Source: Candidatus Limnocylindrales bacterium
Lineage (GTDB): Bacteria > Chloroflexota > Limnocylindria > Limnocylindrales > CSP1-4
Direction: 5' to 3'
DNA length: 61,180 nucleotides
NCBI GenBank assembly: GCA_036505555.1
Contig: DASXTH010000072.1
Location: 1 to 61,180, forward strand
In this document: piece by piece, positions 26,503 through 46,627 of the stretch
How the letters are laid out: the number at the start of each line of letters is the position of its first letter
How positions within the stretch are numbered: position 1 is the first letter of the stretch
Program-made: the position numbers and the translations under genes
Notes under the pieces: generated by a model
Databases searched by the model: none
Told to the model about the DNA's origin: nothing
What the model saw: only the letters and a program-made list of their open reading frames with translations

Positions 26503-26503
26503 G

Positions 26504-26863: not shown

Positions 26864-27180
26864 GTCGCCGACACCCGCAGCTGGGTCACCAGGACCTGAA
26901 GAGGTGTGCCTGTGGGAACACAGATCGACGTCCCGCTCTGGACGACGACCGGTACGCCGCCGGCGAGCACCCGGGTCGCACCGACGACGAACTGGGCCGT
27001 CGCGCACGGCGGAGCGCTGGTCCCGGTCAAGGCGCAGCCGGCGATGACCCACGGCGACGTGAGCGTCACGACCGGCTGGCCGCCGAGGAGGACTCGCGGG
27101 TTGGGAGTCGTCGGCGTCGCCTGGCCGGCGTGAGCGCAGATGACGGTCGCCCCGAGCTGGACCGCGAAACCGGCCATCAC
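26860..27180 (-). CDS. PAAR-like spike-tip protein (DUF4280-type)
   Basis: 106 aa. Its pattern of conserved Cys and Gly residues (VICAHAGQ, RVLLGGQPV, AGC...PC, RVLAGGVPV, SICVP) is typical of PAAR-like cones. The start overlaps the gpV stop. Confidence 0.6.
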   Translation of the reverse strand: MMAGFAVQLGATVICAHAGQATPTTPNPRVLLGGQPVVTLTSPWVIAGCALTGTSAPPCATAQFVVGATRVLAGGVPVVVQSGTSICVPTGTPLQVLVTQLRVSAT

Positions 27181-28768: not shown

Positions 28769-28809
28769 CAGCCGGATCCCCGCCTCGCTCGTGAACACCC
28801 GATGCCTGC

Positions 28810-29109
28810 CTACGGCCTGGGCATGACGACGTCCACGATCCGACCCGGACGCTCGAGCTCCTCGGGACGGAGGACATCGTTGCCATCGCACAGCCGCCAG
28901 AACGCGAGTGGATCCCCGGCGAAGCGGGCGGCCAGGAGGTCGAGGCGGTCGGCGTCGGTCATGACGTGCTCGGTGACGACGGTCAGCGAGTCCGGCCGGG
29001 GAAGAAATCGGCGCCGCTTGAAGCGCACGGTGCGAAGGCTCCCGTCGGGCTGCGCGACCTCCATCGCGGCGTCGTCGATGCTGGCGTAGCGGCTCTGGGT
29101 CTCGAACAT
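28810..29109 (-). CDS. LysM-like / gpX-like small baseplate protein
   Basis: 99 aa, with the ATG 2 nt after the upstream stop. HVMTDADRLDLLAARFAGDPLAFWRLCDGND resembles the tail protein X / LysM motif (h.v..GDrLD.lA.r.yGd....W.ia..N). Confidence 0.6.
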   Translation of the reverse strand: MFETQSRYASIDDAAMEVAQPDGSLRTVRFKRRRFLPRPDSLTVVTEHVMTDADRLDLLAARFAGDPLAFWRLCDGNDVLRPEELERPGRIVDVVMPRP

Positions 29110-29111
29110 CG

Positions 29112-29792
29112 CTACCCGCCGATGCTCATGCTCGCCGAGAACGAGGCCGAGCCGGAGAGGGCGCCACCGACCGCGGTCGCACCCGAGATCGTGGCCATGA
29201 CCTCCTTGATGACCTGGTGAGCGAGGAACAGCCCGCCCCCGATGCTCAGGAGTCCGAGGTCGTCGTAGGTCAGGACACGGAGGGACAGGTTGACCTTCGC
29301 CCGGATCGGGTTCAGCGCCGGATCGAAGGCCTCTTCGGTGATCGATAGCTGGGTCAGACGGACGGGGACCACGCGCTTCAGGCCCCAGACGAACAGGGTC
29401 AACGGCGCTTCAGGCGGGATGACCTCGATGATCCCGAGCGCGGCGAGCACCTCGTTGGCGATCACGAGCGCCGACTTCGGGTAGAGGAGCATCTCGAGCG
29501 ACGCGAGCGACGGAGCGACCCCGAACTGTCCCGTGATCGCGTCGCCGCGCTCCATCTGATCGGCGGCGTCGACCTCGACTTCGAGCGCGATCGTCTCCTC
29601 CGGCGGGCCTTTCAGCCGGAGCGCCTCCGACTGCGACCCGTCGCCTCCGCCGCCGCCGGCCGCCCGCGCCTGGACGGTCCGGGTCAGGGTGTCGGGGTTG
29701 TACTGGAAGATGACGACGCTGGCGAGCGGGTTCGCCGGATCAAGCCCGATGATCGCGCCCTTCAACAGCCGCGGCGAACCGGGAAACGTCAT
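29112..29792 (-). CDS. CIS tube-initiator-like protein (Afp7 N-terminal-domain type)
   Basis: 226 aa. VVIFQYNPDTLTR, APLTLFVWG and LNPIRAKVNLSLRVL match the pattern I recall for the contractile-injection-system tube/initiator family. Confidence 0.6.
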   Translation of the reverse strand: MTFPGSPRLLKGAIIGLDPANPLASVVIFQYNPDTLTRTVQARAAGGGGGDGSQSEALRLKGPPEETIALEVEVDAADQMERGDAITGQFGVAPSLASLEMLLYPKSALVIANEVLAALGIIEVIPPEAPLTLFVWGLKRVVPVRLTQLSITEEAFDPALNPIRAKVNLSLRVLTYDDLGLLSIGGGLFLAHQVIKEVMATISGATAVGGALSGSASFSASMSIGG

Positions 29793-30221: not shown

Positions 30222-31049
30222 TCAGTGTGGCAGCTCCGCGGCGCAGCATGCCTCGCCGGCGTTCGCCAGGAGGCTGGCGAAGTCGGAGCGCTTCATCCGG
30301 AAGCGGCCGTTCTGGCCCCAGCTGCCACCCCACGAGTTCTGGAAGACGTAGGTGTCGTCGGCGTCGACCTTCTCGAGCATGAGGTAGCAGTGGCCGCCGG
30401 CGACGCTGCCGGTCGGCTTCACGAGCCCGTTCGCGTCCGGATCGAACATGTCGTCCGTCCAGGCTGTCCCGACGACGACCGGCCCATGGTTGTTGATCCA
30501 GTCGTCGATCTCGTTCGTGTTCTGCGCGAACGCGAAGGCGGCGAGGCGGCCACGGTTACGGAGCGCGAGGGCGCCGGACCGGACATACGAACCGTTCTCC
30601 GCCAAGGGCTCCCCGTCGATCACCTTGCACTCGTAGTAGAGCGCGTGACCATCCGCGTTCTGGTAGTTGCCCTCGACCGGCATGGCGTCGACCCAGCCGG
30701 CCCAGCCGAAGCCAACGCAGTGGCCGGTCTGGCCCTGATCGAGCTGGATCTTCAACTCCCAGCCCGGCGTGGTGTCACCGGGCGGCATCGGCTGCGGCTT
30801 CCGCTTCTGCCGCTTCAGCCAGCGCCAGAAGACGAGGTAGTTGGGCCAGGTCGAGAAGTAGGGCGTCTGGTCGAGGACCTGCTCCACGGTCATCTGCAGC
30901 GTCGCCTCGCCCGGCTCGGCGAGCTCCATCAGCTTCGCGATCGACCAGTCGCGCGGGTCCGGCTTGTAGATCCGGCCGAGCAGGTGGCGGCCGAGCGTCA
31001 GCGCGGCGCTCCGCGGTGGCGGATCGATGGCGAGCTCACGGGGTTCCAT
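30222..31049 (-). CDS. Papain-like cysteine protease (C1 family), no signal peptide
   Basis: ATG with GAGGA upstream. Catalytic layout: DQGQTGHCVGFGW (Gln and Cys111), AGGHCYLMLE (His220), FQNSWGGSWGQNGRFRM (Asn238-Ser-Trp). Confidence 0.8.
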   Translation of the reverse strand: MEPRELAIDPPPRSAALTLGRHLLGRIYKPDPRDWSIAKLMELAEPGEATLQMTVEQVLDQTPYFSTWPNYLVFWRWLKRQKRKPQPMPPGDTTPGWELKIQLDQGQTGHCVGFGWAGWVDAMPVEGNYQNADGHALYYECKVIDGEPLAENGSYVRSGALALRNRGRLAAFAFAQNTNEIDDWINNHGPVVVGTAWTDDMFDPDANGLVKPTGSVAGGHCYLMLEKVDADDTYVFQNSWGGSWGQNGRFRMKRSDFASLLANAGEACCAAELPH

Positions 31050-31154
31050 CGCAGGGTCCTCAGCGGCTGGCGCGACGGACCGTCGCGGCCCAGGTCAGGT
31101 GAGGCTAGAGGCCGGTCGTCACGTCCGCGTCACGACGGCGTCACCCGCAAGCGT

Positions 31155-32972
31155 TCAGAATCGCAGGCTGCCGACGCCAAGGACGGTGACTCGGCTGGCG
31201 TCCGTGCCGATGAGCGCCCTCCCTTCGACACCGAGCTCGAGCCGCTCCCATCGATACCCGGCTCCGACGGATCCAGAGAGTCCTCCCACGACCTCTGCCC
31301 CGGTGCCTGGCCCTCGGTCGGGCGCCGGTAGGGCGATGCCTACGAAGCCACCGGCTCGGACGTCCCCATAGAACCCGCGCAATGGTTGCTGGATGCGAAC
31401 GCCGATCTCACCCAGCGCAGCCGCCACGTGGCCGGCGGATGGTCCCCCTCCCGGCAGATACAGGAGGTGAGCTCCGAGGCCAGGGTTGATGACGACCATT
31501 TGGTCCGAGCGGAGCGCGATTCGAAGACCCAGGCCAATGGCCGCCCGCGTCGTGGCGGGCTCGAACGACGCTCCGCCGCGAAGTTCGAGACCGAGCCGAC
31601 TTCCGGACCTGGACTCGCCCGACTGCGCGGCGGTTGGGTCCACGACGGACGGCCCCGGCGGGAATGTCGCGCCCCGGACGGCCGCACAATCGAGTGTCCG
31701 GTTTTCTACCTGACCCTGTGCGGCATCGATCCCGAGCCCGAGCGCGGCATTGACGCGGGTGGCGAGGCCCGAGTGCGGTCCGCGGAGCCCGAGCCAGACC
31801 CATCGCTTGAACACCTGCCGGTGAATTGGGTGTGTCGCGATCACCGCACGGTGGTAGGCGGCGATCCGCGTAACACTTCGCTCCCTCACGGGATCGCTGA
31901 CCGTGGATCGCTCGAAATAGTCGTTCAAGGGGCCGAACTGGGACATGTGGTCGATGTAACACGCGTTGGTTCGGACCAGAACCGTGTACAGGCGATGGAA
32001 CTCGCGGACGAAGCTGCTGGTCCATGCGTCGACCTCAGACTCATCGCCTCGGAGACTGCTTCCGGTCTCGTACTGACGAACGTGGTCGACCTCATGATTG
32101 ACGGTGACCCGAGTCGCAAAGAAGTTGTCGGGTTCGAGTGCCGGCGGTCCCAGAACGACGTAGTTCTGGCTCCCATGGCGGAGGGTGTAGCCGGCATCGC
32201 GCGAAAGGGAACGGTGGTCCGATCCGGCGGCTCTCTTGGTGCCGAGTCCGTCGTCGTAGTTGATGACGTGCGAACTCACATCGAAGGCAACGAGGTGGGC
32301 GGCATCCGGATAGCGGTCGCCCTCGCTGGCGGTGGTGCGATCGACCACCCGCCATCCAATGGCCTCGTGCACGAGGGCTGCTCGATCCGCGGAGGTTGTT
32401 GCCGCCCCGACCCGAGCGGCCCAGTCGGCAGGGGCGCCGGTTGCTGCTGGTCCGACCCGTGAGTCGCGCTGGATCACCGGTGCGCGGTCACCGCTGTCGT
32501 CCGTCTGACCTTCTCGGGCCAGCCGCTCGGCCTCGTCGTCGGGAGGCCCGATGACATGCGACCATTGCCGTGCGCGCGCTTGTTGAGTGACGTGCGCAAG
32601 CTCGTGGCGGAGCAGGTCGCGTCCAGACCCGGCGTCGGCGTCGAACTGCGAGCGACCGAACACCACGTGATTCCCGACCGTGAAAGCCCGAGCCCCAAGT
32701 GATTCCGCGGCATTCGCCGCGGTCGAGTCAATATGAATTCGAACGCTTGCGAACTCGTGCCCGGCGGGCACGGGAGCCATCCCGCGGATCGAGCCAGGCA
32801 GGGGCATGCCAGGCTGGTCGAGCACTGACCTCACGGCCGGGTGAGTGCGCCGCGCCGCTGTCAGGCGATCGCCTGGGCTGAATCCGCCCGACTCCGCCGC
32901 GCGGGCAAGACTGCTCATCGGCGCTGACCCGTCGCCGCGATTCGCGCCGCCGACTGCGCGATAGCTCCACAT
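31155..32972 (-). CDS. DUF4157-type zincin protein with a second HExxH region and a C-terminal amphipathic beta-barrel-like domain
   Basis: FASVRIHIDSTAANAAESLGARAFTVGNHVVFG...LLRHELAHVTQQ matches the DUF4157 signature. A second motif NHEVDHVRQ lies at aa 292-300. The last ~150 aa form alternating hydrophobic strands ending in LRF. The start is ambiguous: ATG 32972 or ATG 32918. Confidence 0.75.
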   Translation of the reverse strand: MWSYRAVGGANRGDGSAPMSSLARAAESGGFSPGDRLTAARRTHPAVRSVLDQPGMPLPGSIRGMAPVPAGHEFASVRIHIDSTAANAAESLGARAFTVGNHVVFGRSQFDADAGSGRDLLRHELAHVTQQARARQWSHVIGPPDDEAERLAREGQTDDSGDRAPVIQRDSRVGPAATGAPADWAARVGAATTSADRAALVHEAIGWRVVDRTTASEGDRYPDAAHLVAFDVSSHVINYDDGLGTKRAAGSDHRSLSRDAGYTLRHGSQNYVVLGPPALEPDNFFATRVTVNHEVDHVRQYETGSSLRGDESEVDAWTSSFVREFHRLYTVLVRTNACYIDHMSQFGPLNDYFERSTVSDPVRERSVTRIAAYHRAVIATHPIHRQVFKRWVWLGLRGPHSGLATRVNAALGLGIDAAQGQVENRTLDCAAVRGATFPPGPSVVDPTAAQSGESRSGSRLGLELRGGASFEPATTRAAIGLGLRIALRSDQMVVINPGLGAHLLYLPGGGPSAGHVAAALGEIGVRIQQPLRGFYGDVRAGGFVGIALPAPDRGPGTGAEVVGGLSGSVGAGYRWERLELGVEGRALIGTDASRVTVLGVGSLRF

Positions 32973-32993
32973 ACGGGCGAGCGATCATCAGCC

Positions 32994-35078
32994 TCAGGCA
33001 TTGGCGTAGATGGTCGTGCACTGAGCATCCGTCAATGGCACGACCGCGCGGCCCGAGAAGGGGCTCATCAGGTTAGCCGCCGGGTGCGCGCCCGAGTTCA
33101 GCAAGGTGTGGCCGATCTCGTGGGCGAGGTCCTCGCGCGTGGTGACGTTGCGAAGGACGACCATCCCACGCAATGGCGCTGCTGGTCCAGTCGCGCAGAA
33201 GGCCGGAACCGAATAACCCCCCGCACCCGATCCGCTGAACGTCGCGGGATAGAAGGCCCGAATTGGGGCGGTCAGCCCGAACGTGGCCGTCGCTCCGTTG
33301 AAGAGCGCACGCTCCTCGGCCGTCGCCGCACCACAGCTGGGCGACGTAGCCAAGTCCGTGTTGCCACCGAGCCATGTCGTCGTCTGGGCGTTTGTCGCCG
33401 TGGCGTTCACACCGTGCCGAATTCCGACGTCGCACTGTTCGAGAATCGAGCTCGCGACCGCAACGTCGGCCGATGGCGTATGGGTGGATCCATCCAGTTT
33501 CACGGTATCAACCGTGACCGTCTTCCGGGGTTGGGCCCTGGCCGCGGCGGGGGGCACCAGGGCGACGGTGGCGGCGACAAGGCCGAGCATCAGATTCGCC
33601 CGCTGGAGGCTCGCAGTCTGGGCGGCCGATGGCGTGGCGGGCGCTGAACCCAGCGCCGTCCGCACAACGGCCAGGATGGCCGCGCCATCGCGCTGGACCG
33701 CGAGAAGCGTGATGTCGCGGTTCACCAAATTGTCCATGAACGCGAGCGCAACATCGAAGCCGTCCGGTCCGAGCTGCTGGAAGGCTGTCCGGACGAAGGG
33801 CAACTCGGCGACCGTATTGGTCAAGGCGCGAGCGGCCAGGTGGATCCCCCGAGCAAGCGCTGTCGGTTCGCGAACGAGGAACGCAGCTACGTCGGCTGCG
33901 AGGGTAGGAGGAGCCGCGCCGGTCGCGCTGGCACGCGTATCGAGGAGGGGGGCGAAGGCCGGATCGAATGCCGCGGCAAGGGCCTGGATTTGCTGGGGAT
34001 TCAGGGTCGCGATGCCGGTCAACTCCTCGATCTCGGCTGGTAGTGGGAAGCGCAATCCGGCCCGCCAGCGCGACATGTCTGGCAATCCCAGGTAGAACTG
34101 GTTGTAGACCATGAGAGCTTGGGCAAGCTCCAGCTCCGAGATGACCGCGAGCGGCTGCGGCACGCCGCCCGTCGGCGTGAACGGAGTGGCCGTCGTCCAG
34201 AGGGGAAGGAGTACTTGTGCGAGCATCCGAGGCGTCAGGTTCGCTCCGATGATCACGTCGAGGCGGCTCGAGCCGGTCGAGATCAGGCCGCCCTGGACGG
34301 TCACGGGGCCGACGCGAGTGTCGGTGACGTTGGTCGGAACGAACTGGATCCCCGTACGCGGCGTAGTGCCGAGCAGGCGGACGTAGCCTACGGCGGCCGG
34401 ATCGGCCCGCGCGACGAGCGTGCGCCCCGAAGCCCACGAATCGAACCGGGTATCGATCGGACCGGCTCGGTTCGATCGGGTGGCCTCGTTGCTGACTTCC
34501 TTGGCCTCGCGTTCGGCCGGACTGCTGGGATCGTCCAGCTCGGGCTCCGCCTCGGACGCGATGCGTCCACCTTGTTGGACGACATGCGTGAGCTCGTGGG
34601 CGATGAGCCGTCGGCCTCGTTCGGACGTTGGCTGGAACGCGCCCGCTCCGAAGACCACATCCCGGCCGCTCGTGTAGGCGATGGCGTGGATCGACGCAGC
34701 CGAGTGGGCCGCGGACGGCCCTTCGTGGATCCGAACCGCCGCGAAATCGTGTCCGAGCGCGCGCTCCATCGACGCTCGGATCCGCGGTTCGAGCGGGCGA
34801 CCATTTGAGTTGATCCCCTCCCGGACCGCTTGACCGAGGTGCGCGGGGGGCAGAGTCCCGGAGACGGGGCTGCGCTGAACACGGTCGGCGTTGTCGTGAT
34901 CGCAGGTTCCCGATGGGCAACGAATGGCGCCACAACCCTGCACGAGTGGACGAACCGCTCGAGCGGCCGGCCGGATCGTGATCGGTGGAACGGATCCAAG
35001 AGCACGCGACTCGGCGCGCGCGGGCCGGGAGTAGATCATGGGACCGCCGGCCTTGACGTCGGCAAACGTCTGGGTCAT
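32994..35078 (-). CDS. DUF4157-type zincin protein with a large uncharacterised middle region and a C-terminal second zincin motif
   Basis: DFAAVRIHEGPSAAHSAASIHAIAYTSGRDVVFG...RLIAHELTHVVQQ matches the DUF4157 signature. The C-terminus carries LAHEIGHTLLNSGAH...NLM. Start chosen at ATG 35078; ATG 35039 is also possible. Confidence 0.7.
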   Translation of the reverse strand: MTQTFADVKAGGPMIYSRPARAESRALGSVPPITIRPAARAVRPLVQGCGAIRCPSGTCDHDNADRVQRSPVSGTLPPAHLGQAVREGINSNGRPLEPRIRASMERALGHDFAAVRIHEGPSAAHSAASIHAIAYTSGRDVVFGAGAFQPTSERGRRLIAHELTHVVQQGGRIASEAEPELDDPSSPAEREAKEVSNEATRSNRAGPIDTRFDSWASGRTLVARADPAAVGYVRLLGTTPRTGIQFVPTNVTDTRVGPVTVQGGLISTGSSRLDVIIGANLTPRMLAQVLLPLWTTATPFTPTGGVPQPLAVISELELAQALMVYNQFYLGLPDMSRWRAGLRFPLPAEIEELTGIATLNPQQIQALAAAFDPAFAPLLDTRASATGAAPPTLAADVAAFLVREPTALARGIHLAARALTNTVAELPFVRTAFQQLGPDGFDVALAFMDNLVNRDITLLAVQRDGAAILAVVRTALGSAPATPSAAQTASLQRANLMLGLVAATVALVPPAAARAQPRKTVTVDTVKLDGSTHTPSADVAVASSILEQCDVGIRHGVNATATNAQTTTWLGGNTDLATSPSCGAATAEERALFNGATATFGLTAPIRAFYPATFSGSGAGGYSVPAFCATGPAAPLRGMVVLRNVTTREDLAHEIGHTLLNSGAHPAANLMSPFSGRAVVPLTDAQCTTIYANA

Positions 35079-35178
35079 CGGTCGCCCGTCGGCTTCCGAG
35101 CCGCCCAGGGGACGGCGTTCAGCTGGTACGCATCCCGTCGCGTGAACGGCTGGCTGGCGGCGCGGCACCGCCGCCGTT

Positions 35179-35198
35179 CGCATCTCTCCGCAGATGCG
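35179..35198. other. 7-bp palindromic hairpin in the 300-nt non-coding gap inside the cargo island
   Basis: CGCATCT (35179-35185) pairs with AGATGCG (35192-35198) across a 6-nt loop. It lies about 100 nt upstream of the 35078 start. Function is unknown. Confidence 0.3.
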
Positions 35199-35378
35199 GC
35201 CTCAACGGGAACGCTCAGCGAACGTGCGCGGAGGCTCGACGCAGGGGCGGGCGTGCGACCTTGAGCCGTTGTCCGCTGGATCGGCGTCATGCATGTCGTC
35301 ATCACTCGTCCCCGAGCCCGCGGCCGCGCAGTGCGGTGGCAACGGCCCTGCCGATCTCCGCGCCGAGCACCGACGTGC

Positions 35379-37844
35379 CTAGAGGTCCGGAAGGACATCG
35401 GTCAGGATGGCCTCGACCTGGCGGACGATGGCCTGTCGTTCCAGGTCCACTCGCTCACGATCGAGCCGCGTCTGCTGCGCGAGAATCGCAGCGGCAGGTG
35501 ACTGGTTCGGATTCGGTAGGCGGCGCGCGAGGAAGGGAACGTGGAGATGGCCGAAGTGAATCTTGGATCCCGCTTGGGTAGCCAGCAGTCCGACCCGATA
35601 GAAGATCTCGTTCGAGAGGTAGCTTCCTCCTGAACCCGCCACGGACGTCGAGCCCGGCGTGGGCCCCTTGAGCGAAGGGGTCACCTTCGACGACCCCGGA
35701 ACTCGCTCCATGATCTCCAGTTCGCCCCGCGTTGGAGCGGGCTTCTGCGGCCTCAACGTGCGGCGAGCCGACGGGGGGAGGGTCCCGCGGATGAACTCAG
35801 GTCCGGCTGGAAGGCCCGGGGCCGCTCCGGCCGTCGCGGGGGTCACGCCCGGGTTGTCTGGCGTCCCAGCGCCGCGGGTCCGGCCGGCCCACTCCTCGAC
35901 CTCGTAGGCAGGTCCGGCGTTCATGCTGATCGTCATGATCATGTCGGCGTGGCCCGGGCCTGACAGATACGCCGCGAACAGTTGCTCCACGATCCGCTCG
36001 TCGAAGGCCCGGAAGCTCACCGGAAAGACGACGCTTTCGACCGACCCCTTGATCGATCCGCTCGTCAGCTGACGACCATCCAGCGCGAGCGCCGCCGCAG
36101 CGGACGGATTGGTGGCCTCGGACAACCCGTAGTCACGCCGCTCGAAGCCGAACGGATCGAAGCCGCTGATGACAATCCGTTTCGTGCTGTTCGGGCCCGC
36201 GAATCGAGCCGCCAACATGCCGCGGGACGCTCGCTCGAGGAGCTGGTTCAGGTCGTCGCGCCGGGCTGCCGTCAGTCCGAATCGCGGCTGCCATTGGTCG
36301 AGGGTCCGGCGGAGCTGGACGCGAGCCCAGTAGAGAGGGCGGTCGTCAGTGCTGCCCGCGCGCGCGGCGGCGGTCGCCTGCGTCCACAGGCCGCGTCCGA
36401 CCGTCTCGACGGCCGTTCGCGCCGCTGCGAGGGACCGCGCCCGGTCGAGCGCGTTCGCGAGCCGCGGGATCGTCGATTCCAGGCCGGAGCGCGCGAGATA
36501 GGTCGAGCTCATGGATGGGACGTTGGCGGCGGCGGGACGCGACGGCTGCGATCGCGCTGCTTCCCGGCCGGGCGGCACGCCAGCGAAGCCGCATCGCGGG
36601 ATCGGCAGGATCGTCCCGCTTCGACCGGCGGCCAGCTCCTGTGGGGTAAGCCTCCGGCCATACGCCTGGCGGAACGCCTCGAGTTCCTCGGCACGCGCTC
36701 GAACGCGCGCCGGATCGGGGCGCTCACCGTCGAGAGGCGCATACGTCGCCGTGACGTAGTCGCTCTGCCACTCGCGGGTGAGATCCGGATCGTTGCAGTC
36801 GGGTCGAGCGAACCCGCGGACCTCGACGTGGGTCTGTCCTCGGGGCCTGGCGCCACAGAAGATTCGCCGTGCCGTCTCCCTCGGCAGGCGGACGCAGCCA
36901 TGGGACAGCGGAGCGCCGGTCACGGTGGTGTGTTGGTGAAGGGCCATCCCTCGGAACCCCAGGAATGTGTTCCAGAACTCCCACGTGTTGTGCGTACGCT
37001 CCGTATCAGTGATCGTGTAGGTGGAGCCGATCGCCGTCGCATTGCTTCCATCGCGCCGCGATTCGGCGACGGAGGCGGTCGTGCCCGGCGGCCCGCCGCC
37101 TACGACGCAGCAGTGCCCCTTGCCCGTCGAAGCGACCGACGACGAGACCGTCCTGTCGCTCCAGTGGAGCGTCACGGATTGCGGTCTTTCCTGATCGACG
37201 ACGATCTTCCTCAGCCACGGATCGCGGTCGGCTGCCGCGCAATCCGGTGAGTTCGCGGCCTCCCAAGTTCGCCGGAGGCGTCCGGCCGGTTCGGCCGACA
37301 CCGCGGTCAGAGACCCTTGGGCGACCCGCTCCGCTTCGAGCTCGTCATTGTCCTCAGGGCGGCTCATCGACAGTGCTCCGCCGGCTGGGGCGTGGCCGGC
37401 CTGCTGGACGACGTGGGCCAACTCATGCGCAAGAAGGCGTTGGCCATCGGGCGTGCCAGGCTGGAATCGTCCCCAGCTGAAGACGACGTGCGAACCAACG
37501 GTGTAGGCCCGGGCGGCCACGTCCCTCGCCGATGCCGCAGCCCCGGCGTCCGTATGGATCCGGACGTGATCGAACCGATGACCGATGCGCGCCTCCATTT
37601 GAGACCGGATCCCGCGATCGAGCCTGTTTCCCGGCGTAGCCAGCGTCGCACCGACGGAGGGCGGGATCGTCGCCGGACCCAGTCCGGTTCGAAACCGGTC
37701 GAGACGCCCATCCGGCTGGCCGCAGCCGCCGGCCGGACACGGATGATCCCCGCAGCGCTGGAGACGACGACCGGAGATGAGCCGCACGGGGCTCGTGCGA
37801 ATGCCCGCCGTGGAGATGCGCGGGGCGCATGCGGCCGAGGTCAT
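35379..37844 (-). CDS. Three-module protein: DUF4157 zincin + YkuD-type L,D-transpeptidase-like domain + pyroglutamyl-peptidase (C15)-like domain
   Basis: ATG at residue 26 of ORF 35379..37919, in an ATGA overlap with the upstream gene. HRFDHVRIHTDAGAAASARDVAARAYTVGSHVVF...LLAHELAHVVQQ matches the DUF4157 signature. ALHQHTTVTGAPLSHGCVRLP matches the YkuD signature. KRIVISGFDPFG...NPS...YEVEEWA...GGSYLSNEIFY...GHLHVP fits a C15-like layout. Confidence 0.75.
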   Translation of the reverse strand: MTSAACAPRISTAGIRTSPVRLISGRRLQRCGDHPCPAGGCGQPDGRLDRFRTGLGPATIPPSVGATLATPGNRLDRGIRSQMEARIGHRFDHVRIHTDAGAAASARDVAARAYTVGSHVVFSWGRFQPGTPDGQRLLAHELAHVVQQAGHAPAGGALSMSRPEDNDELEAERVAQGSLTAVSAEPAGRLRRTWEAANSPDCAAADRDPWLRKIVVDQERPQSVTLHWSDRTVSSSVASTGKGHCCVVGGGPPGTTASVAESRRDGSNATAIGSTYTITDTERTHNTWEFWNTFLGFRGMALHQHTTVTGAPLSHGCVRLPRETARRIFCGARPRGQTHVEVRGFARPDCNDPDLTREWQSDYVTATYAPLDGERPDPARVRARAEELEAFRQAYGRRLTPQELAAGRSGTILPIPRCGFAGVPPGREAARSQPSRPAAANVPSMSSTYLARSGLESTIPRLANALDRARSLAAARTAVETVGRGLWTQATAAARAGSTDDRPLYWARVQLRRTLDQWQPRFGLTAARRDDLNQLLERASRGMLAARFAGPNSTKRIVISGFDPFGFERRDYGLSEATNPSAAAALALDGRQLTSGSIKGSVESVVFPVSFRAFDERIVEQLFAAYLSGPGHADMIMTISMNAGPAYEVEEWAGRTRGAGTPDNPGVTPATAGAAPGLPAGPEFIRGTLPPSARRTLRPQKPAPTRGELEIMERVPGSSKVTPSLKGPTPGSTSVAGSGGSYLSNEIFYRVGLLATQAGSKIHFGHLHVPFLARRLPNPNQSPAAAILAQQTRLDRERVDLERQAIVRQVEAILTDVLPDL

Positions 37845-38650
37845 GACGAAGCCGCGCATTCGATGAAGTGCGCCCACGCGTCGACGTTCTTCGACTGATC
37901 CCCGCGGAGGTTGTCGCACGGGTCGTGACAGTCCACGCGCGGGGTGCAGTAGTTCTCATCGCCGGTGACGGAGGAGTCGATGCCAGCGGCATGGCCGGCC
38001 TCGTGGATGAGCGTTCGCCGCATCTGGCCCGCCGAGGTTGCGAAGATCCGCGGGCACAGCACCATCGTCGAGAGATCGTCCGTGACGCGCGCCGCGACCT
38101 CCGGATCACGGCATGGCGCATCGCCACACCCGGCAACTTCGATCGGAACGGAGTCGAGTTTCTGTCGGATGGAGGCGACGCGCGAAGATGCACGCCCGGC
38201 ATCGATGTTCGTGTGAAAGACCCGGGTCGCGACGGTGTCCAGATAGCGATCACCGCGGCCCAGGGCCTGGTACGCCCGCGACGTCGTACTCCGAGCTGCC
38301 CATCGGACAGCGTTCATCCGCTGCGACTCCTGCGGCGTGAACGGCCTGCGGGTCGGAGACGAATCGACGTCCTGGCCCACGCACAGCAGCTCGCGGAGCG
38401 CCTGTCGGGTCGGATCCGTCGGAGGTGGCTCCTCATCGGGGCCGCCCTCCGCCAGCCTCGCGCGGAGGGGCGACGCGATCGAGAAGTGCCGCAGGACGTG
38501 GTTCGCCCCGCGGCACGGTCGATGGATGCCCTCCGCCGTCTCAGCCGGGGCCGGAACCGCCAGCAAGGCCAGTCGTCCGCCCCGCGCCGGCCCTAGCGCC
38601 CGTGGCAGACGTGGTGCCCTGGTCATCGGCGCCATGCAGGCCGTCATCAC
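37841..38650 (-). CDS. Aspzincin (M35-like) metallopeptidase-domain protein
   Basis: RRTLIHEAGHAAGIDSSVTGDENYC aligns with HExxH followed by the aspzincin GTxDxxYG motif at its T, D and Y positions. The start is GTG 38650 (GTGA overlap) or ATG 38647. Confidence 0.6.
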   Translation of the reverse strand: MMTACMAPMTRAPRLPRALGPARGGRLALLAVPAPAETAEGIHRPCRGANHVLRHFSIASPLRARLAEGGPDEEPPPTDPTRQALRELLCVGQDVDSSPTRRPFTPQESQRMNAVRWAARSTTSRAYQALGRGDRYLDTVATRVFHTNIDAGRASSRVASIRQKLDSVPIEVAGCGDAPCRDPEVAARVTDDLSTMVLCPRIFATSAGQMRRTLIHEAGHAAGIDSSVTGDENYCTPRVDCHDPCDNLRGDQSKNVDAWAHFIECAASS

Positions 38651-38967: not shown

Positions 38968-40949
38968 CCCGCCACCTCCGTCTCGGTCAGCGTCCGCTCC
39001 AGCTTCGCGTACTCCGTTCGGGTCGCGCGGAGCAGATGGGCCATGCCGATCGGCCGGCCGGCCTCGGCGGCCAGGAACGCGGCGTTCACCGCGATGTTCC
39101 GGATGTTGCCGCCGGCGACGTTGAGCCGCGCGAGTCGTGCCGCTTCCACGCCGTCCGTGGGCGCAGCCGGCGGGAACGCTCGCCGCCAGATCTCCGCCCG
39201 CGCCGCCTCGTCCGGGAACGGGAAGTGAACCGTGAAGCGGATCCGCCGGAGGAACGCCGGGTCGATGCTCTCCTTCAGGTTCGTCGTGAGGATCGCGAGG
39301 CCACGGTAGGCCTCCATGCGCTGCAGCAGGTAGCCGACTTCAATGTTCGCGTAGCGGTCGTGGCTGTCCTTGACCTCGCTGCGCCTGCCGAAGAGCGCGT
39401 CGGCCTCGTCGAAGAGCAGGATCGCCCCGCCGTCCTCCGCGGCGTCGAAGACCCGGCGCAGGTTCTTCTCGGTCTCGCCGATGTACTTGCTGACCACCTG
39501 ACTCAGGTCGATCCGGTACAGGTCGAGGCGGAGCTCGGTCGCGAGGACCTCGGCCGCGAGCGTCTTGCCGGTCCCGCTCGCGCCGACGAACAGCGCGGCG
39601 ATCCCGAGACCCCTGGCGCTCGTCGCGCCAAACCCCCAGCGGTCGTACACGAGCGTCCGGTGACGGACCTGGAGGGCCAGCTCGCGGAGGGTCTCGAGAT
39701 GGCCGACGGGCAGGACCAAATCCGACCAGCCCGCTCGAGCGTCCACACGCTGGGCCAGATCGTCCATGCGCGGCCGCGCCTGGCCACGGCACGCGTCCCA
39801 CAGCGCGCGGCCCAGGGCCGTCGGATCGGCGCCGCCCACCTCCCCCGCGGCCGCGACCTCGGCCAAGGCTTCGACGCTCGCCTCCCGGATCCCGCGGATC
39901 CCGAGGTCGAACTGCGAGGCGAGGCGATCGCCCTGGCCGTCGAGCCGATCGGGGCCGACCAGCGACTGCCACACCTCGAGCTGCTCGCCGCTGGTCGGCT
40001 TTGCCACGTCAAGCGCGAGCATCGGGCGTGCGCGCGTCGGTCGGCGATCGCGGATCAGGAGGATCAGGGCCGACGACAGTCCCTCGACGACTTGGGAGAT
40101 GGCGGCATCGCGAGCCGAGTCGTGACCCTCGACGCCGTCGCAGTCCAGGATGAGGGCGGTTCCAGCGAGCGCAGCCTCCCGTTCGCAGAGGCGGACGAGG
40201 GCGTCCAGCTCGCGGGGTTCGACGGGCAGGGACTCGGCCCGGACGATGGCCAGGCGCATCCCGAGCAGGATCGCGGCGACCTCCGCGACGAGGCGCTTGC
40301 TCGAGCCGTCCGGTCCGCACAGCTCGATGACCGGCGGCGGTTCTCCGGGCGGCCGATCCGTCCAGGCATGGACGATGCGGTGGGCGAGCTGCTCGTGGGA
40401 GGGCACGACGTCGAGCTCGGACGCACGTTGGGACAGCGGCTCGAGGTACCCGGCCAGGCGGTCGTCGACCGCGTCGATCCCGACGAGGTGATGGAGCACG
40501 CGCTCGTCGATCCGCAGCGCGCTTGTCGCGAGCGGCCCGGCCGCGGGCTCGACGAGCCGCCAGCGGCGCAGCGGCGCATTCGGCGCGAGCGCGCTCCAGT
40601 GGGCATCGGGCAGCGCCGCCAGGGCGAGGCTGAAGGTCGCGTGGGCCCGGCCCGGATCGCCCTGGGCCCGAGCGCACAACTCGCCAACGGACGCGTCGAG
40701 CTCGACACCGGCGCACAGAACCAGCACGTCGCGCTCGAAGGCCGACAGACCGAAGGCCGCGACGACCTGGTCGAGCGCGGCGGGGCGATCGGAGAGCGCC
40801 GGGTCCGCCGCCACATCGGTTCGCGGGACGTCCGGCCCTGCCGAACCCCCGGACGCGTGGCGCTCAACCGCCGACCGGACCCCGCCGAGGGCCGCCTCGA
40901 GGCGCGCCTTGTTGGCCGCCGTCCACGCGTCGGCCTCGACGCCGATCAT
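38958..40949 (-). CDS. AAA+ ATPase of the eCIS Afp15 type
   Basis: 663 aa with a long N-terminal region and a single C-terminal AAA module. Walker A is GASGTGKTLAAEVLA and Walker B is ILLFDEADALFG. The SRH-like region is ILTTNLKESIDPAFLRRIRF. ATGA overlap with the DUF4255 gene. Confidence 0.9.
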   Translation of the reverse strand: MIGVEADAWTAANKARLEAALGGVRSAVERHASGGSAGPDVPRTDVAADPALSDRPAALDQVVAAFGLSAFERDVLVLCAGVELDASVGELCARAQGDPGRAHATFSLALAALPDAHWSALAPNAPLRRWRLVEPAAGPLATSALRIDERVLHHLVGIDAVDDRLAGYLEPLSQRASELDVVPSHEQLAHRIVHAWTDRPPGEPPPVIELCGPDGSSKRLVAEVAAILLGMRLAIVRAESLPVEPRELDALVRLCEREAALAGTALILDCDGVEGHDSARDAAISQVVEGLSSALILLIRDRRPTRARPMLALDVAKPTSGEQLEVWQSLVGPDRLDGQGDRLASQFDLGIRGIREASVEALAEVAAAGEVGGADPTALGRALWDACRGQARPRMDDLAQRVDARAGWSDLVLPVGHLETLRELALQVRHRTLVYDRWGFGATSARGLGIAALFVGASGTGKTLAAEVLATELRLDLYRIDLSQVVSKYIGETEKNLRRVFDAAEDGGAILLFDEADALFGRRSEVKDSHDRYANIEVGYLLQRMEAYRGLAILTTNLKESIDPAFLRRIRFTVHFPFPDEAARAEIWRRAFPPAAPTDGVEAARLARLNVAGGNIRNIAVNAAFLAAEAGRPIGMAHLLRATRTEYAKLERTLTETEVAGWA

Positions 40950-42175
40950 GGGACAGTGACAAGCGGATCCGTGATCACACCCGCTCCGTTCCGCACGAGG
41001 ACGCTGTCGGCTTGGTCGACGACCACCTGAACGGCGTGGCTCCCGGCCGCAACCCCGGCCATCGGGAACGACAGGCTCGTCGTGTCGCCGGATCGAGGCG
41101 GCCCGCTGATCACGTGTCGCCGCTGACCGGTCGCGGGGTCGAGGAGCAGGACATCGACGCGTTGGGACGCCGAGACCGTGACATCCGTCGTCGCGGTGAG
41201 GACCGGTCCGGCCGCCACCGCGACTGCGGCGATCGTCGGATGGAGAGCGAAGGTCGCGACGTTCGACTCGACTCCGTCGTGCTCGATGGGAGGAATGCCC
41301 AACAACGTCCGATGGACGACCTGGACGGTGGCCATCCCCGCCCGAAGCTCGGCAATCGGGACGGTCCCAAGGTCGAAGGGGATCCGGGCGTTCGTCCCGG
41401 CGGCGATCGGTCGATCGGACCCCGCGAGCCGGACGCGGGTCACGTCGCCGACCAATTCGCTCCCGAGGATGTCGATCGTGGTCGTTGCCGTGATCGGGGC
41501 CCTCGGATCGGGCGATGCCACGACCGCGGCGATGAGCGGGCGGCCCAGCCGCACCACGTGGACGTCGCGCTCGAGGACGGGCAACGGCGTCACCGTCGCC
41601 ACGTCCGGCTCGACGAGGACGACCGACGCCTGGTAGGCGACGGACAGCGCGTATGGGGTCTGGAAGAACACCGACCAGAGCTTGGACAGCTCCTCGAGGT
41701 TCATCGGCAGCGGGACGAACTTCACCCGCTCAACCTGATCGCCGAGGTCGGTTGCGGCCAGCGACGGGTGGACAGGCGGGCTGGCCGTCGCGGCGGTCTT
41801 GACGGCGGCGATCAGCTGGGGCGTCAGGAACGGCTGGGCGTGGAGCGTCCGGACCACGCTGCCGAGAAGCCGCTGCGGTTCGAGCTCCTCGTCGGCGCCA
41901 CTGAACGTGAACAGGTAATGCAGATCCAGCGCCGCCACCGGCCGCTGGAGGAGATCGCCTCCCGACGATCGGGTCGGGAGATCGGCGTTCCGCAGTGCCA
42001 CGTTCGGAACGACCTGATAGAGGTAGACGTTCACCGTCGGGGAGGACGTCCCGTTCGTCGAGGTCTCGGGTCGGTCGGTCGTCACGGTGGCGCCCGGGAC
42101 ATCGGCCCCGGCGGTCGCCTGAAGCAATCGATGGAGCGCGGCGGTGACCGTTGCCACGGCGAGGAAATTGCTCAT
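40946..42175 (-). CDS. DUF4255 (Pvc16/Afp16-like) tail terminator/cap protein with C-terminal Ig-like extension
   Basis: MSNFLAVATVTAALHRLLQ...VNVYLYQVVPNVALRNADLP is the characteristic DUF4255 N-terminus. ATGA overlap with the upstream gene. Confidence 0.8.
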   Translation of the reverse strand: MSNFLAVATVTAALHRLLQATAGADVPGATVTTDRPETSTNGTSSPTVNVYLYQVVPNVALRNADLPTRSSGGDLLQRPVAALDLHYLFTFSGADEELEPQRLLGSVVRTLHAQPFLTPQLIAAVKTAATASPPVHPSLAATDLGDQVERVKFVPLPMNLEELSKLWSVFFQTPYALSVAYQASVVLVEPDVATVTPLPVLERDVHVVRLGRPLIAAVVASPDPRAPITATTTIDILGSELVGDVTRVRLAGSDRPIAAGTNARIPFDLGTVPIAELRAGMATVQVVHRTLLGIPPIEHDGVESNVATFALHPTIAAVAVAAGPVLTATTDVTVSASQRVDVLLLDPATGQRRHVISGPPRSGDTTSLSFPMAGVAAGSHAVQVVVDQADSVLVRNGAGVITDPLVTVP

Positions 42176-43308
42176 CGCCCGGTTCCGTTCCGGGCGCGGA
42201 GATAGTCGTCGAGCGACGGGGCGGTCGATCGCCGGGTGGCTTCCGATCGCGGCCGGGGTGCCGGAGCGGTCATCGCGCGAACCTCGATCCGTCCGATCGA
42301 GACGCGCACGATCGGCCCCGCTCGCGTCGATTCGGTCGGGCGCCAGCCCTCGTCATCGAGGATGGCCCGGGTCGGGGTGACGCTGGAGAGCTGGTGCCGG
42401 ACCGTGGCGACGCCGATCCGTGACGGAATCTCGTCGGGCTCGTCGCGGGCGGGTTCCGATGGGGGGCCCTCCTCGACGGAGGGAGTCCTCCGCCTGGGCG
42501 GTGGGACGCGCGCGGAACGGGCGGCGGGCGGAGGCACGTCGGCGCGGGGCGTCTGCGGGACGGAGACGGCGGCCGCGCCGGACGTGGCGGCGGCGTTGGC
42601 TGCGATGGCGGTCGGGCCGACCGGAGCGGACGGGCCCGAGATCGGTGGAGACGGCTCGGCAGCCGGCAGCGTTCGGGCCGCGCGTTCGATCGAGGGCCTG
42701 CCGGGCGGATCCGGGAGGACGCGGCGTCGACCCACCGGGCCAGCAGGCCGAGCCGGCCTCGGCGGAGGCGCGTTGACGAAGGCGCTCGGGAGCACATCCG
42801 CGCGGGGGGAGGGCGTCGGTGCGCGGGCGGCGCTTCGTTCCGCGCTCCTCCCGGCCGCAGGCGCCGGCCCGGCGCGCGGGGCGACCTCGGTGGCGGCGGC
42901 CGGCGCCTCGATCCGCCGTGGCGGCGACGGACCGCGCGATCGGGTCGTGCGGGACCGCGCGATCGGGTCGGCAGGTTCAATGACGATTCCGGCCGGTGTC
43001 GGCTCTTGCCGACGCTCGATCGATGCGTCGAGGGCCGCTGGCCGGACCGGCGCCGCCAGCCGATCGGCGATTCGATCCCGCGTCGCCGAGCGAATCATTG
43101 GCACGACGCGAGGTGGCCCTTCTGGGGCCTCGGGCATCGGCGTGCGGTGCGTCACATCGGCAACGGGCGCGGCCCGGTCCGCTGACGCGTCTGACGCGAA
43201 GGCGTCCGGACGGTGCCGAGCCGGCTCGTACCGGCCGAGGGTCCGCGGCCGGAGCATCCCGCCGGGATCGAGTGCGTGATCGATCAGACGGGACAACACG
43301 CTATTCAT
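42172..43308 (-). CDS. Pro/Ala/Arg-rich low-complexity protein in the tape-measure (Afp14) position
   Basis: ATG at residue 17 of ORF 42172..43356, with GAGG upstream. The protein is largely low complexity. The ordered C-terminus is GPIVRVSIGRIEVRA...SLDDYLRAR. Assignment is positional only. Confidence 0.55.
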   Translation of the reverse strand: MNSVLSRLIDHALDPGGMLRPRTLGRYEPARHRPDAFASDASADRAAPVADVTHRTPMPEAPEGPPRVVPMIRSATRDRIADRLAAPVRPAALDASIERRQEPTPAGIVIEPADPIARSRTTRSRGPSPPRRIEAPAAATEVAPRAGPAPAAGRSAERSAARAPTPSPRADVLPSAFVNAPPPRPARPAGPVGRRRVLPDPPGRPSIERAARTLPAAEPSPPISGPSAPVGPTAIAANAAATSGAAAVSVPQTPRADVPPPAARSARVPPPRRRTPSVEEGPPSEPARDEPDEIPSRIGVATVRHQLSSVTPTRAILDDEGWRPTESTRAGPIVRVSIGRIEVRAMTAPAPRPRSEATRRSTAPSLDDYLRARNGTGR

Positions 43309-43316
43309 CTGCGACC

Positions 43317-44051
43317 TCACTCGGCCGCGAGCTCGACGTAGAGCTGGCGACGCCACGGGCTCAGCTCCAGGACGTCCGACTCACGCCAGCCGTAGGCCGC
43401 AGCCAGGCCCGCGACGTCGGCGGCAATCCGCCGGGCGGCTGCCGAAACCTCGGTCCACAGGAAGGCTGGCACGTCGACCCACGTCTCCCACGCGTGCTCG
43501 CAGGCCGGGCACGCGACGCTCAGGCTGAGGTCGAGTCCCGGGTCGGCGAGCGCGATGGCCCGTTCCACGGCGGCCTCCAGATCCGGACCGATCGTGGCCG
43601 CCGCGGCGTCGACGAGCAACCGGTTGATGAGCGTCCTGCGGGCGGCCTCCGCTGCCGCGCCGGTCGAGGCCGCAGCCACCTCGAGCGCGGCCACGAGGTC
43701 ATCCGTCGTCGGCAGCCTGACCCGGACGGTCCGCCTCCCGGCGGTGACCTCGATCGGGGCGACTGCGGCGTCATCCCCGGGATCGACCTGTAGTCGAGCC
43801 GCATCGAGCTCCAGCTCGAGGGCGTCGCCGCAGCTCGGACACGAGGTGACGGCGACGAGCCTTCGGCCGAACGTCGTGGCCCGCAGCTCGAGGAGGCTGG
43901 CATCGCGACGGCCGATCGGGACCGTGCCGAGGCTCGCGTCCGGCAGGTCGGGCCGGGCGTAGGCGAGGAGCAGCAGGGCGCGCTCGCGGGCATCGACCGA
44001 CGCCCCGTGCTCCCAGATGTCGAGGAGATCCGCCGAGGTCAGCGCCTCCAT
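43317..44051 (-). CDS. Conserved hypothetical with two CxxC pairs, in the Afp6 / tail-assembly-chaperone position
   Basis: ATG at residue 31 of ORF 43317..44141, 5 nt after the tube stop. The CxxC pairs are CPSC (aa 81-84) and CPAC (aa 190-193). I recall similar proteins next to tube genes in high-GC eCIS loci. Confidence 0.6.
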   Translation of the reverse strand: MEALTSADLLDIWEHGASVDARERALLLLAYARPDLPDASLGTVPIGRRDASLLELRATTFGRRLVAVTSCPSCGDALELELDAARLQVDPGDDAAVAPIEVTAGRRTVRVRLPTTDDLVAALEVAAASTGAAAEAARRTLINRLLVDAAAATIGPDLEAAVERAIALADPGLDLSLSVACPACEHAWETWVDVPAFLWTEVSAAARRIAADVAGLAAAYGWRESDVLELSPWRRQLYVELAAE

Positions 44052-44055
44052 GGCG

Positions 44056-44574
44056 CTAGGCGAACTGCGTTTCCAGCGGCTCGTCGACGCCCTCGTCGCG
44101 CTCGAAGCCCTCGTTCTCGAGCTTGATGTGCTGGATCGCAACGGCGTTCGCGTTCGCGTCGAGATCCGGCAACGCCTGGTACTCGGAGACCCAGCACCGG
44201 AAGACGTTGTACGCGATCACCTGTTGACCGGCCTCGTTGTAGACCTCGATCCTGATGTCCTTGCGGAAATCCAGGAGCGAGACCTCGCTGCCCAGGCCCG
44301 CCTGGAAGTTCCAGACCTTCCGCGCCCACGCCTCGAAGTCGAGGTCGTGGGTCACGCCACGCTCGAGGGTGATTGCCTCGTACTCGGTTCGGCCCGGGCT
44401 CTTCCGGCTGGTGCTCGGGTCGCCGCCCTCGCGATGCTTGACGACCTCGGTCGTCCGTTTCAGGCCTCCCACCTTGCTGACGCCGGCGACGGGCTTGCCG
44501 TCCCACCAGACTCGGAACTTGAAATTCTTGTACGGGTCGAAACGGGTCAGGGCATTGACCGTGAACTGCGCCAT
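44056..44574 (-). CDS. Contractile tail tube protein (T4 gp19-like / Afp1-type)
   Basis: 172 aa. FDPYKNFKFRVWWDGKPVAGVSKVGGLKRTTEVVKHREGGDPSTSRKSPGRTEYEAITLERGV matches the gp19 tube family pattern. Confidence 0.9.
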   Translation of the reverse strand: MAQFTVNALTRFDPYKNFKFRVWWDGKPVAGVSKVGGLKRTTEVVKHREGGDPSTSRKSPGRTEYEAITLERGVTHDLDFEAWARKVWNFQAGLGSEVSLLDFRKDIRIEVYNEAGQQVIAYNVFRCWVSEYQALPDLDANANAVAIQHIKLENEGFERDEGVDEPLETQFA

Positions 44575-44593
44575 CGCTGCACCATCCGTCCTG

Positions 44594-46513: not shown

Positions 46514-46627
46514 GCCGTCCTCCTGACGGCGCCCGCTCTGGCACCGTCTGCTTCGGCGGAAGGGTGGTCGACGATCCGTCACTGGACCATCACCGGCATG
46601 TCACCGCGATGCGCGTGCGGCCGCCCG

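Follow-up and report, generated by a model that had tools for sequence, protein, structure and literature searches.

We describe an 821-residue protein encoded on the minus strand of contig DASXTH010000072.1 (assembly GCA_036505555.1) from a Candidatus Limnocylindrales bacterium of the Chloroflexota, the whole 61,180-nucleotide stretch being referred to below as the window. The protein ends in a domain with the fold of C15 peptidases in which serine takes the position of the catalytic cysteine, and this serine proves to be the mark of a large and widespread family. Its gene belongs to a block of cargo genes within the operon of an extracellular contractile injection system (eCIS) and, by analogy with characterised cargo, the protein is very probably a cargo of that system. 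We lean slightly towards reading it as an effector of the surrounding eCIS that carries a two-hydrolase payload, with the bacterial cell wall as its most likely target. An earlier note, made by a model from the DNA letters, had described the gene product as a three-module putative effector with an apparent Cys-to-Ser swap.

The C-terminal domain has a C15 fold with serine at the nucleophile position

The C-terminal domain matches the Pfam model Peptidase_C15 (PF01470) with 32.5 bits against a cut-off of 22.7. Two fragments of the protein (aa 546-821 and aa 185-545) were modelled with AlphaFold2 (AF2) using about 70 aligned homologues, and the model of the first is of high confidence (predicted local distance difference test, pLDDT, 91.4; predicted template modelling score, pTM, 0.90). 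Comparison of this model with the PDB using Foldseek gave pyrrolidone-carboxylate peptidases for all of the best 33 matches (probability 1.0, E down to 2e-9), with target-normalised template modelling (TM) scores of 0.59-0.74; the next matches were unrelated nucleoside phosphorylases at E >0.004. Phmmer alignment to solved C15 enzymes sets GGSYLSNE on AGTFVCN, GHLHVP on GFIHVP and EVEEW on VERV, and a profile of the whole family run against PDB sequences produced a match weaker than that of the single domain (E 0.007) in an identical Ser-on-Cys register. By these alignments and the predicted model, Ser744, His768 and Glu650 occupy the positions of the C15 Cys-His-Glu triad. The earlier note had placed serine at the nucleophile position, and on this the PDB-sequence alignments and the high-confidence model agree: Ser744 falls on the catalytic Cys of the solved enzymes, not elsewhere.

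The domain falls far short of the curated equivalog models for pyroglutamyl peptidase in NCBIfam (TIGR00504, 31.3 bits versus 201.75; PRK13197, 34.6 versus 199) and contains a Pro/Gly-rich insertion of about 80 residues (aa 655-735). It is a C15-fold protein that does not qualify as pyroglutamyl peptidase I by the curated models. The Ser744 codon is TCG, two changes from Cys; a sequencing error or a private mutation at this site was considered and is ruled out by this codon and by serine being the norm of the family.

Serine is the hallmark of the PA0049_N family

A precomputed match to PA0049_N (PF27118) is on record for a protein 100% identical to aa 160-821 (P0001) and for nearly all full-length homologues. 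Searching with the full protein returned 653 relatives, and about 80 clusters (at 90% identity) span nearly its whole length at 35-60% identity. These full-length clusters come from at least nine phyla, are usually found in eCIS loci and share precomputed matches to PF13699, PF03734 and PF27118, often together with PF01470, so that a combination first taken for unrecorded is far from rare. In an alignment of 92 full-length homologues, from which the conservation counts are taken, Glu650 is kept in 79 of 83 sequences and His768 in 80 of 83; the nucleophile column holds Ser in 75 of 83 and Cys in 4 further, and Asn745 and His766 are kept in 78 and 81, respectively.

With the C-terminal domain alone as query, 491 more proteins were found. 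Many of them are about 420 residues long, come from Streptomyces, Saccharopolyspora, Kitasatospora and others, and bear the NCBI label 'pyroglutamyl peptidase'; among the 120 matches listed together with the query, the nucleophile column reads Ser in 119 and Cys in 2. When 1.84 billion cluster representatives were searched exhaustively, 743 clusters matched at E <= 0.001, of which 566 reached E <= 1e-10, and the PA0049_N unit comprises more than 700 clusters at 50% identity. For all sequences in which both motifs were readable (n=286), we recorded the nucleophile, the residue at +2 and the residue at -2 from the His. The combination Ser/Glu/His was found in 277, and the remainder divided among C/E/H (3), S/E/G (3), C/E/F (2) and S/A/H (1), which gives Ser in 281/286 and Cys in 5/286; solved C15 enzymes have Cys, His and Phe at the corresponding positions. 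What had been presented as a swap in this one protein is thus the hallmark of a large family, and the few Cys members look, from their residues, like intermediates between the canonical C15 state and that of the PA0049_N family.

Whether the domain uses Ser as its nucleophile or is catalytically dead had been left open by the earlier note. The second option is disfavoured, as Glu650, Ser744, Asn745 and His768 are near-invariant among such distant relatives. Because the Glu/Ser/His triad is kept at 95% or above across divergent homologues, with Ser/Cys interchange at one site, and since such interchange with the rest of the triad retained is what an active nucleophile site predicts, conservation makes the Ser744 site more likely to be active than dead.

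Stand-alone members of the family have a signal-peptide-like N-terminus in 60 of the 69 full-length cases, which hints at a substrate outside the cytoplasm. They share 36-40% identity with the protein described here, from aa 439/450 to about aa 770-817 in 6 of 8 tested and from aa 483 in the other 2; the start at aa 439-450 implies that the unit takes in the last 100 residues of the helical region that precedes the C15 fold. The neighbourhoods of three stand-alone proteins showed no eCIS locus and offered no functional lead. Literature searches found no experimental work on stand-alone PF27118 proteins and no functional account of PA0049, and none of the papers found deals with the three-module protein, with the replacement of Cys by Ser or with PA0049_N.

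The YkuD fold and the helical region

For the middle of the protein, we accept the YkuD fold despite a marginal Pfam score because structure prediction agrees: the AF2 model of aa 185-545 has a pLDDT of 94.4, and the best 23 PDB matches in Foldseek are all L,D-transpeptidases (probability 1.0). Structure prediction therefore gave both of the enzyme folds that the earlier note had posited. The motif SHGCVRLP occupies aa 314-321 (nt 36882-36905) and includes Cys317; SHGC/SHGCVR is present in 92 of 92 homologues, and His303 is invariant. A single-sequence search of this region against PDB sequences was discarded, having returned chance matches to uracil-DNA glycosylase only (E ~0.5). The YkuD part has no LysM or PG_binding match in Pfam and no export signal of the kind found in housekeeping enzymes, and inspection of the whole protein sequence revealed neither a signal peptide nor a membrane anchor. 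The absence of an export signal and of a peptidoglycan-binding domain fits a delivered effector, not a housekeeping transpeptidase.

All three folds of the earlier description are confirmed by Pfam, PDB alignment and structure search, but the three-module count leaves out a fourth element, a helical region of about 190 residues (aa 356-545) for which no structural match was found in the PDB or among the BFVD viral models. The second half of this region (from about aa 440-450) forms part of the PA0049_N unit. Four family-invariant cysteines were seen in addition to Cys317, namely C245 and C246 (in GKGHCC), C350 and C418 (window positions 36591-37112, minus strand); in a protein made in the cytoplasm, these suggest a metal site rather than disulfides.

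The DUF4157 domain and the N-terminus

The eCIS_core domain (formerly DUF4157) is matched with 103.4 bits (E 7.2e-30). Its HExxHxxQ...E signature is intact, reading HELAHVVQQ and then ELEAERVA; HELAH lies at aa 140-144 (nt 37413-37427), and HExxH is kept in 90 of 90 aligned homologues. The domain was named PVC-metallopeptidase in the passage of Zhang et al. 2012 (PMC3482391) that proposes autoproteolytic release of C-terminal toxins, and it is the eCIS core domain used as a marker of eCIS toxins by Geller et al. 2021 (PMC8213781).

By composition only, the 74 residues preceding this domain are 61% disorder-promoting and have an isoelectric point (pI) of 11.4. The family consensus at the N-terminus is LQRxCxC...LQR; the ATG start leaves 26 residues before the LQR motif, with about 21 in the consensus. 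This ATG, at 37844, and the TGA that ends the upstream gene overlap in the sequence ATGA, which suggests translational coupling; the stop codon of the gene described here is TAG at 35379-35381. An alternative GTG start at 37919 (846 aa) is less likely, given its 79-nt overlap with the upstream gene and its poorer fit to the family N-terminus. In the 846-aa numbering the YkuD cysteine is C342, not the C341 of the earlier note, whose coordinates for HELAH, SHGCVRLP and the Ser744 codon are all correct.

The gene lies in the cargo block of a complete eCIS operon

A complete eCIS operon lies on one strand of the window, with the cargo block in its middle (Table 1). By the eCIS genes identified, this operon of a Chloroflexota metagenome-assembled genome (MAG) is complete and has a cargo block of five genes, and the gene for the AAA+ ATPase stands two genes upstream of the one described here. 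This location, together with the N-terminal domain (NTD)-DUF4157-C-terminal domain (CTD) layout of proven eCIS cargo (PMC8894135), supports the designation of the protein as a putative effector.

Table 1 Features of the candidate cargo gene and of the surrounding eCIS operon.
Feature	Position	Strand	Basis or remarks
Candidate eCIS cargo gene, whole	35379..37844	minus	821 aa + stop; NTD, DUF4157, YkuD, helical region, C15-like unit; open reading frame (ORF) list, domain matches
N-terminal region, aa 1-74	37623..37844	minus	basic, Gly/Pro/Arg/Ser-rich; Cys-rich LQRC..C....C stretch; candidate loading sequence
DUF4157 / eCIS_core (PVC-metallopeptidase), aa 75-151	37392..37622	minus	Pfam PF13699
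YkuD (L,D-transpeptidase) fold, aa 213-355	36780..37208	minus	invariant His303, SHGCVR; Pfam, AF2, Foldseek
All-helical region, aa 356-545	36210..36779	minus	AF2 helices, pLDDT >90; joins YkuD and C15-like domains
C15-fold domain, aa 546-821	35382..36209	minus	Pfam C15, PDB alignments, AF2, Foldseek, column conservation
Catalytic-position residue Glu650	35895-35897	minus	PDB alignments
Catalytic-position residue Ser744	35613-35615	minus	PDB alignments
Catalytic-position residue His768	35541-35543	minus	PDB alignments
BTAD-domain transcriptional activator	46657-47493	minus	adjoins sheath gene
Upstream structural genes	40946..46582	minus	sheath, tube, Pvc16_N
Sheath	44594-46582	minus	Pfam
gp19-type tube	44056-44574	minus	Pfam
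Pvc16_N protein	40946-42175	minus	Pfam
AAA+ ATPase with winged-helix domain (WHD; Afp15/Pvc15-like cargo loader)	38958-40949	minus	Pfam AAA E 8e-27, WHD E 2e-19
106-aa ORF	38647-38967	minus	directly after AAA+ ATPase
Cargo block	30222..38650	minus	M35-like zincin, the gene described here, two eCIS_core proteins, papain-like protein
M35-like zincin, 269 aa	37841-38650	minus	HEAGH; sub-threshold Aspzincin_M35, 22.9 bits vs cut-off 30
eCIS_core protein	32994-35183	minus	second DUF4157 protein; ~510-aa C-terminal part ends in HEIGH
eCIS_core protein	31155-32972	minus	third DUF4157 protein; unannotated C-terminal half
Papain-like protein, 275 aa	30222-31049	minus	Peptidase_C1, 32.6 bits; in cargo block
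Downstream structural genes	14677..29792	minus	CIS_tube through DUF6519 protein
CIS_tube	29112-29792	minus	Pfam
Spike OB domain	27177-27686	minus	Pfam
gp25	26504-27052	minus	Pfam
Baseplate_J	24079-26502	minus	Pfam
1678-aa protein	19017-24053	minus	Pfam survey of operon
DUF6519 protein	14677-19005	minus	Pfam

A scan of one genome per species returned 58 loci, among which Parafilimonas was not represented. By tblastn with the proteins of the window, the full DUF4157-YkuD-helical-C15-like order was found in 22 of them, from Pseudomonadota, Actinomycetota, Acidobacteriota, Bacteroidota/Chlorobi, Gemmatimonadota, LCP-89, Verrucomicrobiota and Cyanobacteriota. At 15 of the 22, genes for sheath, Pvc16, AAA or baseplate lie within the fetched flanks, several of the remaining loci being short contigs, and further DUF4157 genes adjoin the homologue at 18. 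The Ideonella locus runs from sheath and tube through Pvc16_N, AAA and a 113-aa ORF to the homologue, followed by DUF4157-OmpA and DUF4157; the AAA+ ATPase holds the same position relative to the homologue there and in many other loci. A Terriglobia MAG has its homologue between two other DUF4157 genes, downstream of baseplate-type genes (including Tail_P2_I).

The modules also occur in other arrangements. DUF4157-YkuD stands alone in ten loci (L011, L013, L015, L019, L021, L022, L024, L025, L027 and L035), with the helical region in L025 and a cut by the contig end in L027, and one further locus (L033) encodes DUF4157-C15-like and DUF4157-YkuD as separate genes. In another protein (P0425), eCIS_core is followed by a calpain-like domain (Peptidase_C2) in place of YkuD and then by the PA0049_N unit, and the unit is found C-terminal to a subtilase domain (Peptidase_S8) in proteins of 1,600-2,550 residues (P0449, P0452, P0472). 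Module shuffling of this kind behind a constant N-terminal DUF4157 is the pattern of polymorphic cargo.

A proposed mechanism and its alternatives

By analogy with known cargo, the basic N-terminal 74 residues would act as a signal recognised by the AAA+ ATPase, leading to packing into the tube lumen or onto the spike. The DUF4157 zincin would be an accessory or processing module; published proposals for its role are autoproteolytic release, an adaptor function to the spike, and refolding. The YkuD thiol enzyme, with His303 and Cys317, would attack the L,D bond of the stem peptide as a carboxypeptidase, as an endopeptidase or by exchange, in the manner of Tlde1. In the C15-fold hydrolase, Ser744/His768/Glu650 would replace Cys-His-Glu, with His766 and Glu746, both invariant and peculiar to the family, adjacent, a serine activity to which the conservation of these residues points. 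The target would most likely be bacterial cell-wall peptide, the two enzymes cutting different bonds of one stem peptide, and this is the least certain step. As YkuD is the dominant partner of the C15-like unit and stand-alone members are exported, a second stem-peptide bond is the most economical guess for the C15-like site, and peptidoglycan as its substrate is a possible, though doubtful, assignment.

A more specific form of this proposal seems rather unlikely as a whole. The PA0049_N unit would be a natural serine-nucleophile enzyme on the C15 scaffold, in which Ser744-His768-Glu650 is aided by His766/Glu746 and acts on a new substrate, for example the stem-peptide bond next to D-isoglutamate; together with the YkuD hydrolase it would dismantle the stem peptide in an eCIS cargo, and the rare C/E/F and C/E/H members would be living intermediates of the Cys-to-Ser transition. 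The Cys-to-Ser mutant of a Bacillus pyroglutamyl peptidase is said to be inactive, and if this is right, the added His766/Glu746 pair may be what makes Ser workable.

The reported inactivity of that mutant is one of several points that weigh against an eCIS effector with two cell-wall hydrolases. The HxH motif and two Glu could instead form a metal site. The YkuD score (PF03734, 23.5 bits) is barely above its cut-off of 23.4, and the gap from His303 to Ser314 is 10 residues against 14-17 in the canonical pattern H-x(14-17)-[ST]-H-G-C-h, a spacing intermediate between housekeeping enzymes and Tlde1. eCIS cargo usually reaches the target cytoplasm, where mature peptidoglycan is absent, and actinobacterial contractile injection systems (CISs) do their work within the producing cell. 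Beside the gene in the window, there is no evident immunity gene. For Cgo1 and Cgo2, which are cargo proteins of AlgoCIS, the disordered NTD is needed for loading and DUF4157 is dispensable (2026 preprint). Loading, secretion and enzyme activity are, in the present case, inferred from computational data. Finally, the cell-wall target proposed in the earlier note is still plausible, but the occurrence of the C15-like unit behind subtilase and calpain-like domains suggests protein or peptide substrates and fits them equally well.

It is this last point that leads to a first alternative, which we regard as unlikely: the payload would act on proteins or peptides and not on peptidoglycan, the C15-like unit being an exopeptidase or amidase that works with a preceding endopeptidase (YkuD, subtilase or calpain-like) on target-cell proteins or N-terminally blocked peptides, possibly of a eukaryote. 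Such a role would suit the retained C15 pocket motifs GFDPF and NPS as well as the delivery of eCIS cargo into the cytoplasm and the many eCISs that target eukaryotes. However, YkuD, whose fold is known only from peptidoglycan and lipoprotein chemistry, is the dominant partner of the unit, its stand-alone members are secreted by thick-walled bacteria, and the eCIS toxin EAT6 showed toxicity in E. coli and none in yeast (Geller et al. 2021).

A second alternative, which we judge improbable, is a cell-wall enzyme that is not injected but serves the producer, opening or remodelling its own wall for particle assembly, anchoring or release as an operon-encoded lysis or release factor. The architecture and the position after the AAA+ ATPase are conserved across phyla, as would suit a system component and not a swappable toxin; the lack of an immunity gene beside the gene would likewise be explained, and stand-alone PA0049_N members are secreted, housekeeping-like proteins. 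Streptomyces CISs act within their producer, and a contribution of eCIS toxins to producer lysis has been raised (Geller et al. 2021, PMC8213781). Set against this, the protein has neither a signal peptide nor a membrane anchor with which to reach the producer's wall, it has the NTD-DUF4157 layout of cargo, and its modules are shuffled between loci, with DUF4157-YkuD on its own, the split arrangement of L033 and the calpain-like domain of P0425. It is very improbable that the C15-like unit lost catalysis with the Cys and is a pseudo-enzyme that serves in binding or folding: the C15-defining nucleophile is absent and the curated equivalog models are missed widely (31-35 bits versus about 200), but Glu650, Ser744, Asn745, Glu746, His766 and His768, residues of the kind that pseudo-enzymes usually lose, are each at least 95% conserved at 35-60% identity, and a few members have Cys at exactly the Ser744 position.

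Relation to known systems

Parts of this architecture are already published, contrary to the impression of the earlier note that the combination had not been described. The relevant passage of Zhang et al. 2012 (PMC3482391) records, for PVC-type and polymorphic toxins, domains of the L,D-peptidase and pyroglutamyl-peptidase kinds; like the protein described here, the PVC-metallopeptidase toxins of that work carry an HExxHxxQ-E zincin at the N-terminus, with variable toxin domains behind it. The passage names the domains in a single sentence and is silent on the three-module protein, on the replacement of Cys by Ser and on the helical region. EAT6 of Parafilimonas terrae, a DUF4157 + L,D-transpeptidase protein, slows growth of E. 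coli but is not lethal to yeast (Geller et al. 2021, PMC8213781); compared by its description, it resembles our protein in its eCIS association and in both domains, and differs in belonging to another phylum. Literature searches turned up no connection between pyroglutamyl peptidase or Peptidase_C15 and contractile injection systems or effectors.

For loading, the closest parallel is AlgoCIS of Algoriphagus machipongonensis, whose tube lumen is filled by the DUF4157 proteins Cgo1 and Cgo2 (Xu et al. 2022, PMC8894135). They share with our protein a predicted-disordered NTD, DUF4157, a variable C-terminal enzyme part and an eCIS operon with an AAA+ ATPase; their C-terminal domains are different, and tube loading was demonstrated for Cgo1/2, whereas for the present protein it is a prediction. 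The Streptomyces CIS, whose spike complex is bound by DUF4157 proteins, acts on the development of the bacterium that makes it.

A YkuD-like fold as a peptidoglycan-directed weapon is known from Tlde1-type effectors of type VI secretion systems (T6SS). Tlde1/Tae5 are, as proposed here, contractile-machine effectors built on an L,D-transpeptidase fold with His and Cys, and their His-Cys spacing is shorter than that of housekeeping enzymes. However, Tlde1 is a single-domain protein with a periplasmic immunity partner and belongs to Pfam DUF2778, whereas our protein is a fusion that matches YkuD itself and lacks an evident immunity gene.

Pyroglutamyl peptidase I (MEROPS C15; PDB 1aug, 4hps, 1a2z) shares with the C-terminal domain the fold, the GFDPF and NPS pocket motifs and the Glu and His triad positions. 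The differences are Ser in place of Cys, His766 and Glu746 instead of the canonical Phe and His, the 80-residue insertion, the N-terminal helical extension and the failure to reach the equivalog cut-offs. Stand-alone PF27118 proteins (Streptomyces, Saccharopolyspora and others) have the same Ser-Asn-Glu and His-x-His motifs; they differ in their length of about 420 residues, their signal-peptide-like N-terminus, the lack of DUF4157 and YkuD, and their location outside eCIS loci (three neighbourhoods).

Earlier work has thus already described DUF4157-toxin fusions, the L,D-transpeptidase toxin EAT6 and PVC-type toxins with L,D-peptidase and pyroglutamyl-peptidase domains, and the Ser-variant C15 unit is the part worth an experiment. 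Most DUF4157 cargo is without an assigned activity, and the YkuD/C15-like cargo family is notable for being widespread, for its high-confidence models and for two recognisable hydrolase sites. eCIS particles are being engineered as protein-delivery tools, for which natural cargo is a source of antibacterial enzymes. Databases label the C-terminal family 'pyroglutamyl peptidase' though the defining Cys is absent, and establishing its function would correct a systematic annotation error; if shown to be active, the PA0049_N unit would be one of few natural cases in which a cysteine-peptidase fold has exchanged its nucleophile.

Neighbouring genes in the window

The M35-like zincin encoded directly upstream, whose stop codon overlaps the ATG of our gene, may be another cargo protein; EAT4 is a peptidyl-Lys metalloendopeptidase (Geller et al. 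2021, PMC8213781). The 106-aa ORF that follows the AAA+ ATPase and the 113-aa ORF of the Ideonella locus (L001 9663-10004) both contain, by eye, IDR[LV]VL[NQ]G, with BLAST similarity that is not significant, and the small ORF after the AAA+ ATPase may be a conserved small eCIS component. The small ORFs upstream of the Ideonella and Terriglobia homologues are not recognisably related by BLAST to each other and to the upstream genes of the window, and no conserved immunity or chaperone gene was found among them.

The C-terminal part of the second eCIS_core protein of the cargo block is 50-55% identical to a neighbour of the Ideonella homologues, and its last 180 or so residues are found again at Nitrospirota and Longimicrobium loci, where one to four genes next to it contain them, with four in Longimicrobium (L019); loci bearing a protein of this type are L011, L013, L015, L019, L001 and L034. 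The BTAD activator next to the sheath gene agrees with the regulators that have been described in eCIS operons. On either side of the eCIS lie housekeeping genes, namely those for PEP carboxykinase (8946-10736), a PALP-CBS enzyme (47613-49187) and Lgt (51673-52836).

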